Shown: one piece after another, positions 17,733 through 46,345 of the stretch | Position numbering within the stretch: the stretch's first letter is position 1 | Layout of the letters: every line of letters begins with the position of its first letter | Assembly: GCA_951406725.2 (NCBI GenBank) | Contig: OX597834.1 | Span: 13,702,001 to 13,766,000 of the forward strand | Direction of reading: 5' to 3' | Length of the DNA stretch: 64,000 nucleotides | Origin: Octopus vulgaris | Taxonomy: Eukaryota | The notes under the pieces: model-generated | Databases searched by the model: none | What the model saw: only the letters and a program-made list of their open reading frames with translations | What the model was told of the DNA's origin: nothing | Translations under genes and position numbers: made by a program

Positions 17733-17824
17733 CCTGCGCCGATGAGAGAAGAAGTTTGGGTAAAGTAGAATTTTCTAATTCTTATGCTATCCTAAAACTT
17801 GATCTCGAAACGTACGTCCGTAGG
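17733..17824 (+). ncRNA. Type I hammerhead ribozyme-like motif (CCGA core)
   Basis: Helix I cctgcg/cgtagg; core CCGATGA; helix II gaga...tctc with a long extension; GAA; palindromic helix III ACGTACGT; GUC cleavage triplet ending at 17818. Confidence 0.75.
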
Positions 17825-20800
17825 TAACTTAAAATTGCATGATAGATTGCCGTCATTTCATTCTTTCTTTCTTACCTGTCTGTGTTTGCCTTTCAAGTGC
17901 TGTGTTTTTACTGAGATCCCCCTTTTAGTAGAAGGAATAGCTATATCTCTTTGACTGCTATTTCTAAATTCGGTGTGTTGGTGAGGCAATTCGTTGCTAA
18001 ACCCTTAATTACTTAGTATTACTTATATATATATATATATATATATATATATATATATATATATATATATATATATATATATATATATATATGCACATAT
18101 ATCCAAACTTTGCGTTGCTTTGTGATTTTGTTTTATTTTTACCTACTTCAAGTTTATATAATTTTTAATTCAACTTCATAGCAATTATTAATGAAAAAAT
18201 AGATGCAGATATATAAATAAGTAATAACGGCTCCTTTAGAATTTTCTTCATCTACTAATGTATGCTTCAGTCACGTGGCAATGAATCTAAAGTTGTTCTG
18301 CCATTGATTCATATAAGATTGATAGAATAGTGGGACCTTTATCATACAGTGAGGTACCTTGCTTTATTTGAAACTAAGACAGTATATGATAACAAGTAAA
18401 ATACAGTTTCAAATGTTTGACCATTCTTTATTAATTAAGAAAATCAAACAGAACAACGAAACTTAAATATTAATAAAATGACCAAATAATGCTAATAATG
18501 ATCCTATATTTTAGAATTTATTTTCTATTTATTTTACTCATCGTATTACGTTGAAAACTTTTCAGCTATTATTATTTTTGTTTTCTATTTTATAATTGTA
18601 TTAGGATTGTGATTTTCTTTATAAATTTGTATGTTCTTTCAAAATTAATTCATTTTTCTGTCATTTCTAATTATAGAATTATATATTGAATTGAAAATAA
18701 ATTGCATGTGGCATCATTTTAATGAAATGTCTTCATTAATTCTAAAGACTTCTCGAGAACACACGCCACATAAAGAAATTAAATGCAACGATAACAAACT
18801 AAAAATATAAACAAAAAGTCAACAACATTAAATCTATGAATCCATCAAGCAAACTACCGCCATAGAAAATTAAATAAAACAAAAATTGTAAATCTAATTA
18901 TACATATCTCGGCAATCTTTTAGTAGTGCGTTTTCAAGTGAAAAATGGAAGTTGTAGAATAAAGATTGTGGACAAAAGAGATATGAAGCCGTTTACTTGC
19001 AGCATGGAATTACTAGAAATCTGATTGGCAAATAGAAAGTGGTGCAGAATCGAGTTCTTAACATACTGAGTTTAACAATACCAAGCTATCTTGCAATGGT
19101 TTTTACAGCTGTTGATATCGTTTAGGTTTGTTCTTCCTGTCGATGTTTTCTGGGGTTTTTTTTAAATCATTATTTTAATTTCGTTATTACTGTTCTCGTT
19201 TTTATTTTGATTCTGTAAACATCTTGATGAATTAAAACTAGAAGAATTGTAGATTTGTTTTGATTAGTCAAGAATACAATAGCTTATATAAAAAAAAATA
19301 TTTTACTCGTTTTGGTTTGAAGAGTCTTCACACAGTTTTATATATAAGAGATAGATGAGAAAATTGTTTCTTTTAAATTACTCAACTATTCAGTAGCATA
19401 CATTTCGAGTATAATATGTAACCGTCGGCCAGTTTGTGTACCAACAGACTGTCTCTGCAACAATTTCGTATTTACAATATTTTGTGGAAGGGAGAGAAAC
19501 AGAGACACGTAAGCTCGATATCCCTGACTACGACTGAAAGTAAAATTTACAAATTATAATCTACAAATTATACTAATCTATAGAAATATACCATTCATTA
19601 CTTGCAATGCCATTTCTGTATCTACCTAGCAATTTTGTATTACCGCAATTGTTTGGAATCTAATCACCAGTCATCGGTCAAGCATATAATTTACCGAGAT
19701 TTACATTCATAAAGGCAAAATTTATTTGCAAAGGAGTGGTTTGTGGATTAAGTTTACCTGTAGTTTGTAAAAGAAGGAGCAAGATTTCTCGTTGTATATT
19801 TTGTTGGTCTTGAACGCCACAGTTAATCTTGGTAGAAACCATTCTTGGAGGTACCGATGATAAGGTCTGCATGGACTTTGTTTAATTTCAATTGATAAGC
19901 GTTACGTCCTTTGACAAAGTTTCCAGGTAGTATTACATTAAAGACATAGCTCAAAGTGTACCCACAGGCACAAACGTATTTTGTCTGAGTCTGATGAAAG
20001 AACAGCTCAAATAGTTTTGGTTACCGATATTTTACTGATCCTATGTTATACAACGGAATACTGAGCCCGATTCCGGATGTGTCTCGTCGTTGCTACACAC
20101 AGACATACAATGACTCAATGGCAAACATATTAAGATTGTTGCCCGATAAAACAATCTTTCATAAATTACACTAGTTATCTAAAGAACACCTTTGCTTAGG
20201 CCAGCTTGAGACATCATGCTTTATTTTTTCCATGGTCTAAAACTCATCTACATTGTCTTTACCCTCAATTACATGAAACCAACTTCTGAATATTAATCAT
20301 GTAGAATTGCTAATGTGCAAAATATAATGCAAATTTCATATATTCATATATTCAAAATAGTTTGTGTTAATATCGTGAGGTCTTGAATGGAGCCAGATGA
20401 CCGGTGGCAGAGAAAACCTTTCTCACTAATATATTAAATCATTGTAGATTGAAATGGGTTATAACTTTCAAATAGATTCCCAAATATACTAATCAGACAC
20501 AATGCTTACAAGATTAGCTAATTGAATGCACCGGTTTTGCTGTTTTTAAAGAAGAAAATAGGGACGCAATAAGATCAATGGCTAGAAAACAAAATTAAGA
20601 AATGACTATAGGGCACCTACAAGAGCAAGATAGGTTACAACCGTTCTTGAAATTCAAAGAGATGGGAGTTGTTGTGAGCCTGGCTGCACCCCGTGAGTAA
20701 ATGCGTAAAGATATGTTATAAAGGTGGAATTTTTGTTTTAGAAGCCAACAGCGGTTTTGTAAACATACTTTTACTGTGTTGAGCATCTTTCACCATTCCT

Positions 20801-21062
20801 CATAAAAACTTTCACGTATTTATTCATCTTCACTTTACAAAAAGGAATTTTCCCTATTTCAGACAACAACGTATGAAAATTGGGAAAACTGGAAGATGTT
20901 CTTTGTCCCAGTGTCTATACATAAACTGGAAATTAGGTCCCCCTCTAAAGAAAATTCCACACGCACATATAAATATATTTGAAATTGAAAAAAAAAAAAC
21001 CGTACTTGCTTCTATAAGGACAGTTTGAAAACGACCGTTTGAAAATGAAAGTGACAGAATCA

Positions 21063-21271
21063 TGTGTGTCTGTGTTTGTCCCCCTAGCATTGCTTGACAA
21101 CCGATGCTGGTGTGTCTACGTCCCCGCCACTTAGCGGTTCGGCAAAAGAGACCGATAGAATAAGTACTGGGCTTACAAAGAATAAGTTCCGGGGACGATT
21201 TGATCGACTAAAGGCGGTGCTCCAGCATGGCCGCAGTCAAATGACTGAAAAAAGTAAAAGAGTAAAAGAGT
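21063..21271 (+). mobile_element. SINE family B, 3' half
   Basis: tgtgtctgtgtttgtccccctagcattgcttgacaaccgatgctgg...gtaaaagagtaaaagag. Confidence 0.88.
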
Positions 21272-45180: not shown

Positions 45181-46089
45181 ATAGGAAGCCCAATGATAGA
45201 CTAAGTTATATTAATGTAGGTTCATGCCATCCCCCTATAGTATTCAAAAATTTAGTTAAAAATATTAGTAAGAGGATTTCTAGCCTCTCATCTAATGAGG
45301 ACATCTTCAATAGCGTTGCCCCAGTTTATAATAAAGCTTTAAAAGATAGTGGTTTTAGCGAAAAAATAAAATATACACCTATCACCAGCCCAACAATAAG
45401 GAAAAGGAATAATAGAAATAGGAAGGTCATCTGGTTTACGCCCCTTACTCACCCGAGGTGGCCTTCAATATAGGTAAATATTTCCTAGCACTGATAGATA
45501 GACATTTTCCAGTTAACCATGCTTATAGGAAACTCTTCAATAGACACAATTTAAAAATTAGTTTTAGTTCAACTACCAATTTTAAAAACATAATCAATCA
45601 TAACATACAAAAAACACAAGAAGAAAACAGCTGTTCATGCAGGAATAAAGAATTGTGCCCGCTAAATGGAGCTTGCATGTCCAAGACCATCATATATGAA
45701 GCTACCGTAAACTCTATAACCACTAAAGACACCGTTTCGACGAAGAAATACGTGGGCCTGACAGAGGGTAATTTCAAGGCCAGGTTCAATAACCACACTT
45801 TGAGCTTTAGGCACTGGAACAAAAGAAAAGCGACACAATTATCCAATCATATTTGGTCTTTAAGAGATAAAGGTGTCGATTATAACATACAATGGAAGAT
45901 TTTGGCCAGATGTAAGCCCTATACTAACGGCAGCGGAAGGTGCGGTTTATGCGACATGGAGAGATGGCTTATCTGGAAAAGCAGCTAGACCCTACCACAT
46001 GTCTAAATACAAGGACAGAGCTTTTCGGATCATGCCCACATCTGACTAAATTTCTGTTACGTTTTTGGTCCCCTAAAGAAAACGGATAG
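45181..46089 (+). pseudogene. Inverted copy of the PLE thumb and GIY-YIG region with two 1-bp deletions
   Basis: Protein identical to the minus-strand ORF over 45458-45988. Deletions near 45441 (cccc versus ccccc) and 45986 (gctag versus gcttag). Confidence 0.88.
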
Positions 46090-46282
46090 AACATGCTTTC
46101 TGTGTTATGTCCCAAGAAGATTTTATATATTTTTATATATTTTTATATATTTTTATGTATTTTTATATAATTTTTATGACGAAAAATGCGAGCGATGTAT
46201 AAGTACGCAGGCAAAGCAGAGTTATAACAGAGTAATTTCCCTTCATTTTTAACGGTATTTTTCATAACGTTTTCAAATAGCC

Positions 46283-46345
46283 AGATAACCGAAGAGATGG
46301 TGTTGTGGATTTCCACTTCGGCATCTGAAACTCAGAGTTTTATCT
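46283..46345 (+). ncRNA. HHR-like motif in the PLE 3' region (CCGA core); mirror copy at 43496-43558 (-)
   Basis: Helix I agataa/ttatct; CCGAAGA; helix II gatg...catc; extra U; GAA; helix III actc-a-gagt; GUU triplet. Confidence 0.65.

Follow-up and report, generated by a model that had tools for sequence, protein, structure and literature searches.

We analyzed a 64,000-nucleotide stretch of Octopus vulgaris DNA (contig OX597834.1, positions 13,702,001 to 13,766,000; this whole stretch is called the window) that contains three hammerhead ribozyme motifs, sites 1 to 3 (site 2 being putative), in which the core reads CCGANGA instead of the canonical CUGANGA, with cytosine (C4) in place of uracil (U4) at position 4. 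We consider it probable that these are hammerheads of the pseudo-long terminal repeats (pseudo-LTRs) of Penelope-like elements (PLEs), in which C has replaced U4 as the family consensus on several independent occasions, beside families that retain U4, and probably attenuates the ribozyme. Such fixation would have occurred here in a family of the Hydra clade and, in the DNA of another animal, in families that we take to be Neptune-like and Penelope/Poseidon-like. The structure and context of the motifs, the fixation of C4 in two families and its derived state within the Hydra clade carry this reading; that cleavage is slowed is what we infer.

Three hammerhead motifs with cytosine at position 4

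We scanned the window for a core, helix II, GAAA, helix III, UH and helix I, trying six core variants. With any core allowed, the structure scan returned four full three-helix motifs, all of them C4, which represent two independent motifs (sites 1 and 3), each mirrored in an inverted arm (Table 1); 60 dinucleotide shuffles gave no C4 matches at a score of at least 10. The same four motifs ranked top in a mismatch-tolerant scan (score 31), and the mean number of matches scoring at least 28 in shuffles was 0.0 (n = 100). Sites 1 and 3 are type I hammerhead motifs of the dimer type, intact and far beyond what chance would produce.

A preliminary description of this DNA had listed the heptamers CCGATGA at 17739, CCGACGA at 29650 and CCGAAGA at 46289, and all three were confirmed, as was the mirroring of the last in the left arm of its element; the mirror copy of site 1 was absent from that list, as were the U4 motifs of the window (Table 1). 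The claim that the heptamers occupy the core position of a hammerhead stood for sites 1 and 3, where three helices surround the core above the level of the shuffles, but not for site 2, which fell below threshold and was recovered by no structure scan of the window. All three sites read CCGANGA, and we class them as a putative core variant that works like a hammerhead and not as canonical members; the GAAA, the A15.1-U16.1 pair and the NUH cleavage triplet are present at each.

Site 1 has a helix I of 6 bp, a long and imperfect helix II and a palindromic helix III (ACGUACGU), with predicted cleavage after C17818 (GUC) and a fold z of -2.73. At site 3, helix II is GAUG/CAUC with an inner hairpin, helix III has a 1-nt loop, and cleavage is predicted after U46339 (GUU). 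Site 2 combines a helix II of GAAC/GCUC containing one A-C mismatch with a helix III of AUGU that is not a perfect palindrome; its predicted cleavage follows U29676 (GUU), and the motif lies 127 nt before a (TA)n run. By this architecture site 2 is plausibly a decayed minimal hammerhead, and it is not significant alone. Extra single nucleotides beside helix II, reported earlier for several motifs, were found at site 2 (an A after A9) and at site 3 (a U before G12, which shifts helix II by one), but not at site 1.

Elements that carry the motifs

The window is animal DNA, AT-rich and with many microsatellites. Site 1 lies in an element of nested direct and inverted repeats, in which 16859-17082 recurs at 17448-17671 as a partial tandem, with a truncated inverted copy, a 3' extension at one end and (TA)n on both sides. 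A single difference in 358 positions separates its arms (16960-17317 and 17671-18028). A blastn comparison of this element with the retrieved loci gave no match, and its layout suggests a PLE.

The core of the left-arm copy of site 3 lies 201 nt 3' of the stop codon of a 5'-truncated open reading frame (ORF); no adjoining ORF was found at sites 1 and 2. The 484-aa protein has 864 homologues, the best 51% identical. Its matches to Pfam PF01541 (GIY-YIG), at E 0.023 and 0.008, were below the curated cut-off, and the region aligns with that of the homologues. The Hydra clade of PLEs is defined by a CxCx5C linker, C-terminal CxxC and CxH motifs, RWK, DKT and (TA)n (PMC8557442). The linker, the C-terminal motifs and (TA)n are present in the frame and its flanks; RWK and DKT are both carried by the closest homologues, and the window copy is truncated at its 5' end before those motifs. 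In a tree of unnamed relatives the window protein stands alone on a long branch, and its closest named relative, judged by eye from a published supplement, is Hydra-1_Obim. On these sequence features, site 3 ends a young Hydra-clade PLE.

The two arms of the site 3 insertion differ at 4 of 1,205 positions, and two of the bases missing from the right arm (behind 45985 and 46257) are present in other copies. One arm only carries a 3' extension, of a kind of tail described for PLEs. The preliminary description had called two of the elements very young, and the arm differences at sites 1 and 3 bear this out. A non-LTR retrozyme was rejected as the carrier, as there were no short head-to-tail tandems with hammerheads and the motifs are single or in inverted pairs. 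No PLE related to the site 3 element was found in the viral contigs searched. Sequencing runs under seven organism labels carry about 0.8 of the words of the site 3 element (20 of the 24 listed runs), which may reflect close relatives, mixed samples or horizontal spread.

Table 1. Coordinates of hammerhead motifs and host-element features in the window.
Feature	Position	Strand	Basis or remark
Site 1, type I hammerhead motif, core CCGAUGA	17733..17824	+	C4 = 17740; structure scans
Mirror copy of site 1 in inverted arm	17164..17255	-	structure scan
Young element, PLE-like layout, no ORF found	16859..18028		repeats, 1.17 kb
Site 2, degenerate minimal hammerhead (putative), core CCGACGA	29646..29680	+	C4 = 29651; architecture
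Site 3, type I hammerhead motif, core CCGAAGA	46283..46345	+	C4 = 46290; structure scans
Mirror copy of site 3	43496..43558	-	structure scan
5'-truncated ORF, 484 aa, Hydra-clade PLE	43753..45210	-	reverse transcriptase (RT) core, CxCx5C linker, GIY-YIG-like endonuclease
Inverted, more truncated arm of site 3 insertion	45181..46382	+	three single-base deletions relative to left arm
3' extension of about 60 nt, one arm only, then (TA)n	43397..43460	-	arm comparison
Decayed minimal hammerhead, U4 core CUGACGA	24656..24705	+	score 25; shuffle mean 0.04 at a score of at least 24
Second copy of the 24656-24705 family, core CUGAUGA, 82% alike	60917..60965		window comparison
Decayed hammerhead-like motif, U4 core	15033..15095	-	weak; not among top tolerant-scan matches

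C4 is the family letter at site 3

We mapped contigs of four sequencing runs to 45860-46378, at 80% likeness and with a 2% reporting limit, and obtained mapped contigs from three of them. From run X2 (DNA), 3,246 contigs mapped, 890 of them less than 95% alike, and no alternative letter reached 2% at any position from 46289 to 46295. The only variants within the motif were at 46312 and 46317, in loops, and a G-to-A change at 46320 that turns a U-G pair into U-A. One contig of 2,619 nt from run X1, which we guess to be RNA, spans the whole stretch without a variant at 46290, and at 46290 the contigs of run X17 likewise show no listed variant. The letter of the site 3 family at position 4 is C.

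C4 families in the DNA of another animal

We searched the five genome records behind the related loci described in the next section, one of which, G001, holds much animal-type PLE DNA. These prokaryote genome records (G001-G005; loci L078-L097) contain animal-type PLE contigs, most likely as host contamination. Raw pattern counts in G001 were noisy and served only to find families (C4, 60 against 104 in the control; U4, 222 against 114). With positions 3 and 4 left free, a pattern search matched 46 places in G001, and 32 distinct copies of a high-copy minimal hammerhead were read in 30 loci (L158-L187). The letter was C4 in 26 of the 32 copies, U4 in 2 and another letter in 4. The adjoining C7-G8 CpG has itself decayed, to TG in 3 copies and to CA in 1, so the two U4 copies are consistent with the same process. 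One of the copies is preceded by the C terminus of an endonuclease, which we take to be Neptune-like. A second G001 family, with C4 in all 3 of its copies, lies behind a C terminus that is presumably Penelope/Poseidon-like. Site 2 resembles the first of these families in its motif only, and blastn detected no wider likeness.

The helices of the high-copy family match those of a Neptune hammerhead from Acropora digitifera (Fig. S3 of PMC4209133), whose layout is also near that of site 2. The Acropora motif is printed with U4, in contrast to the predominant C4 of the G001 copies, which reflects either a difference between species or a decayed copy picked out by the descriptor. This comparison suggests that published surveys may show CpG-decayed minority copies as the family type.

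That C4 is a stable family trait, and not decay, is supported in the site 3 family (by runs X2, X1 and X17) and in the high-copy G001 family; to this extent the preliminary description, which had argued against decay, holds when checked as fixation of C4. Its view of C4 as a lineage-specific variant is not supported, given the U4 motifs in the window, the U4 of Hydra-1_Obim and the C4 families in another animal's DNA.

Position 4 in related loci and published families

The comparison set, centred on one clade, was made up of 97 related loci on contigs of metagenomes and genomes, and was scanned with position 4 left free, at about 1.2 chance matches per shuffle. There were 86 matches in 60 loci, which at positions 3 and 4 read CU (79), CC (3), UU (3) or UG (1); grouped into 45 motif families, these became 38 CU, 3 CC, 3 UU and 1 UG. 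The CC motifs in L007 and L009 look real, and the third (L072) lies inside an ORF, at threshold, and is probably due to chance. Hydra-type hammerheads with U3 cores (U3-G8 and U3-A8) were seen at L020:2497-2550 (minus strand) and L042:2095-2146 (plus strand).

In published tables, U4 appears in 26 of 26 Hydra-clade rows, including Hydra-1_Obim (PMC8557442), and in all 56 of the metazoan PLE representatives printed (PMC4209133); both surveys used descriptors built on CUGANGA. Because the relatives, Hydra-1_Obim among them, carry U4, C4 at site 3 is a derived state within the Hydra clade. Hydra-1_Obim, from Octopus bimaculoides, shares with the site 3 element the CxCx5C linker, the C-terminal CxxC and CxH motifs, (TA)n and an inverted truncated copy (PMC8557442), and in a comparison by eye also stretches of protein and a core followed by GAUG. 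It differs in its CUGAAGA (U4) core and in its helices, and is a different family. The Octopus Naiad consensuses in the available part of one published supplement showed, by eye, no match to sites 1 or 2.

The window motifs are like the PLE hammerheads of PMC4209133 in their position behind an RT-endonuclease ORF, their type I form with a short palindromic helix III, their dimer fold and their pairing on opposite strands. The extra base after A9 at site 2 is also shared, since the minimal PLE hammerhead consensus in that survey, CUGANGAH, includes it. They are unlike them at position 4, the only core changes displayed there being U3 and A8, as well as in the long helix II of site 1 and the extra U before G12 at site 3.

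Folding, covariation and model searches

Two copies of site 1, and likewise two copies of site 3, form, when co-folded in silico, a double hammerhead whose core is unpaired; co-folding two copies of site 2 gave no double hammerhead. For covariation we aligned 20 motifs, site 3 and 19 U4 relatives, drawn from a set that omitted 6 of the 45 motif families; 19 to 20 motifs entered the covariation analysis and the model, and their selection by the structure scan makes the result partly circular. In this alignment 91% of cells were paired, 10 of 12 pairs had changes on both sides, and the covariation score was above all 500 shuffles. The preliminary description had named a lack of helix covariation as refuting its reading; covariation is present here, with the circularity just mentioned. 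Position 10.1-11.1 was unpaired in 14 of the 20 motifs, which makes a U before G12 a usual feature of the Hydra-type clade.

A covariance model built from the 19 U4 relatives ranked site 3 first in the window, but weakly (16.3 bits, E 0.11); with its poor separation, it did not find site 1, site 2 or the motif at 24661. A search of the whole window against Rfam showed no hammerhead among the 150 of 230 matches listed, and around the three sites no hammerhead family appeared at E of at most 10. Eight control loci (6 U4 and 2 C4) were equally blank. Because Rfam also misses U4 hammerheads of PLEs, its blank is not caused by C4. The earlier claim that canonical searches would overlook C4 is right for descriptors that require CUGANGA, and does not extend to Rfam.

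Proposed mechanism

In the mechanism that we propose, two tandem copies would pair through the palindromic helix III, and the hammerhead would fold only as a pair. U4 contacts the A6-N7 phosphate (PMC3088659); C4 would remove this contact, and cleavage would be slowed, not abolished. Metazoan PLE hammerheads cleave poorly even as dimers, and one PLE hammerhead cleaves only with the PLE protein, cleavage being dispensable for insertion in vitro (PMC11167929). C4 would slow a ribozyme that is already slow and protein-dependent, a change that PLEs may tolerate or favour. A cut in the 3' repeat would remove 35-100 nt that still need to be copied. Because the element extends about 35-100 nt past the predicted cut, copies with an intact motif would come from RNA that was not cut there, and for that reason slower cleavage would cost little or even help.

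The same substitution occurs naturally elsewhere. A viroid U4C hammerhead has lower activity in vitro and allows infectivity in vivo (PMC3088659), and zeta virus ZV1 has a CCGA hammerhead whose cleavage in vitro falls at the expected position (10.64898/2026.09.16.752053). Activity is thus kept in vivo or in vitro with the core change seen here. Those hammerheads are type III, monomer-competent and part of replicating RNAs, whereas the window motifs are type I, dimer-type and part of DNA retroelements; unlike theirs, C4 here is fixed across a high-copy family. Creation of CpG by mutation bias alone does not explain fixation.

Several points weigh against this account. The window motifs are predicted hammerheads, whose cleavage is a prediction from sequence and folding. 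Pairwise mutagenesis of one hammerhead gave low activity for all single CUGA-turn mutants (PMC9901934). The additional U before G12 is a second oddity of site 3. Fixation was examined in one of the three window families, on assembled contigs, which drop rare variants, and one of the four runs (X7) yielded no mapped contig for that family. The share of C4 in the window also exceeds that in the related loci, an excess that a host-independent model does not explain.

Alternative explanations

It is possible, though unlikely, that the C4 motifs are dead or nearly so, being kept as a folded RNA for protein binding or dimerisation or spread by way of a more intact template. The low activity of CUGA-turn mutants (PMC9901934) and the dispensability of cleavage for insertion in vitro (PMC11167929) would suit this, as would the Naiad PLEs, which thrive without canonical hammerheads. 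The 2,619-nt contig of run X1 runs across the predicted cut site, though the RNA status of that run is guessed and contigs cannot reveal ends. Against it, neither sites 1 and 3 nor the G001 families show damage to the other core letters, GAAA or NUH, and what changed at the level of families is C4, not core letters scattered at random; natural C4 hammerheads elsewhere do cleave (PMC3088659; 10.64898/2026.09.16.752053).

We give a small chance to a switch in the host lineage, in which C4 is favoured by the host, is acquired convergently by unrelated PLE families and is carried by the youngest of them. Both intact, youngest motifs of the window are C4 and its U4 motifs are decayed. The window holds 3 C4 families against 1 to 3 U4 families, compared with 3 against 41 in the related loci; depending on the window ratio taken, Fisher's test gave P values of 0.004 (3:1), 0.010 (3:2), 0.018 (3:3) and 0.075 (2:3), in tests that were post hoc and concern one 64-kb window. 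CpG is not depleted in the window (observed/expected 0.97), so the C4-G5 step would not be eroded quickly. On the other side, U4 motifs coexist in the window, which means that C4 is not a host-wide replacement, and Hydra-1_Obim has U4. G001 contains C4 families, L007 and L009 have single C4 motifs, and since site 2 is decayed and also C4, there is no clean sorting by age in this single window.

An improbable third explanation is that C4 is a folding fix that prevents helix III from pairing with the core. When position 4 of site 3 is set to U in silico, it pairs with A46334 (probability 0.98), the monomer hammerhead fold drops from 6.8e-4 to 9e-6, and the double hammerhead is no longer the lowest-energy structure. 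The same replacement at site 1, however, leaves the dimer unaltered and raises the active monomer fold threefold, and the relatives L023, L051, L063 and Penelope-3_HM combine U4 with the same CUCAGAG helix III.

Decay of single copies, or chance, is very improbable. Site 2 does have two more changes of a decay type and is not significant by itself; for the site 3 family and the high-copy G001 family, decay is refuted by the contigs and by the 26 of 32 copies. Site 1 lies in a young element that is 99.7% identical between arms, with everything else intact, and a change from U to C creates a CpG, opposite to the usual decay of CpG. Editing of C4 to U in RNA, as in a switchable ribozyme, is hardly credible, having nothing beyond mere possibility in its favour and against it the full-stretch X1 contig (guessed RNA, contigs losing minority editing) that shows no variant at 46290.

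Novelty and significance

Both U4C as a natural variant and PLE hammerheads are already known. We found no published report of C4 as a PLE family consensus in a literature coverage that was incomplete; two studies of 2017 (Luense et al.; Arkhipova et al.) could already show it. It is conceivable, although we remain doubtful, that animal retroelements contain a large class of C4 hammerhead ribozymes that has been overlooked, its members being active but tuned down, repeatedly fixed across PLE clades, under-counted by descriptors that demand CUGANGA, and found preferentially in the currently active families of this octopus host.

Young, high-copy families with naturally fixed, probably weakened cores bear on the question of why PLEs keep hammerheads. 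Two matched pairs, the site 3 family with Hydra-1_Obim and the G001 family with the Acropora motif, would allow the role of cleavage speed in retrotransposition to be tested with U4 and C4. Descriptors that require CUGANGA miss whole families, and from some they may retrieve only the CpG-decayed copies.

Other hammerhead motifs and repeats in the window

The U4 motif at 15033-15095 has a helix I of 6 bp, a perfect helix III and a weak helix II, and scored 13.1 bits (E 0.75) with the covariance model. A fold-back at 29296-29495 represents another hammerhead family, with GAAA, a palindromic helix III and UA on both arms; the minus arm reads GCGAUGA at the centre of the fold, which places C at position 4, position 3 having probably been lost to the fold. 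The near-perfect fold-back at 46494-46712 contains GUGAAGA, a helix II of GGCC/GGCC, one additional C, GAAA and a palindromic helix III, and we read it as a truncated U4-type motif of yet another family. On the minus strand at 42150-42200, GAAA comes shortly after CUGACGA; this may be a U4 hammerhead copy with an internal deletion, and the match is not significant.

Transposase fragments of Mariner and Tc1 type lie at 54347-54982 (minus strand) and 23803-24165 (plus strand), the former 88% identical to a 350-aa transposase. At least three families of short interspersed repeats have several copies each in the window. The copies of one are at 4942-5327, 36310-36695 and 42283-42666, those of a second at 25646-26057, 33116-33560 and 62138-62554, and those of a third at 33777-34172, 41262-41648, 53588-54002 and 58245-58664.

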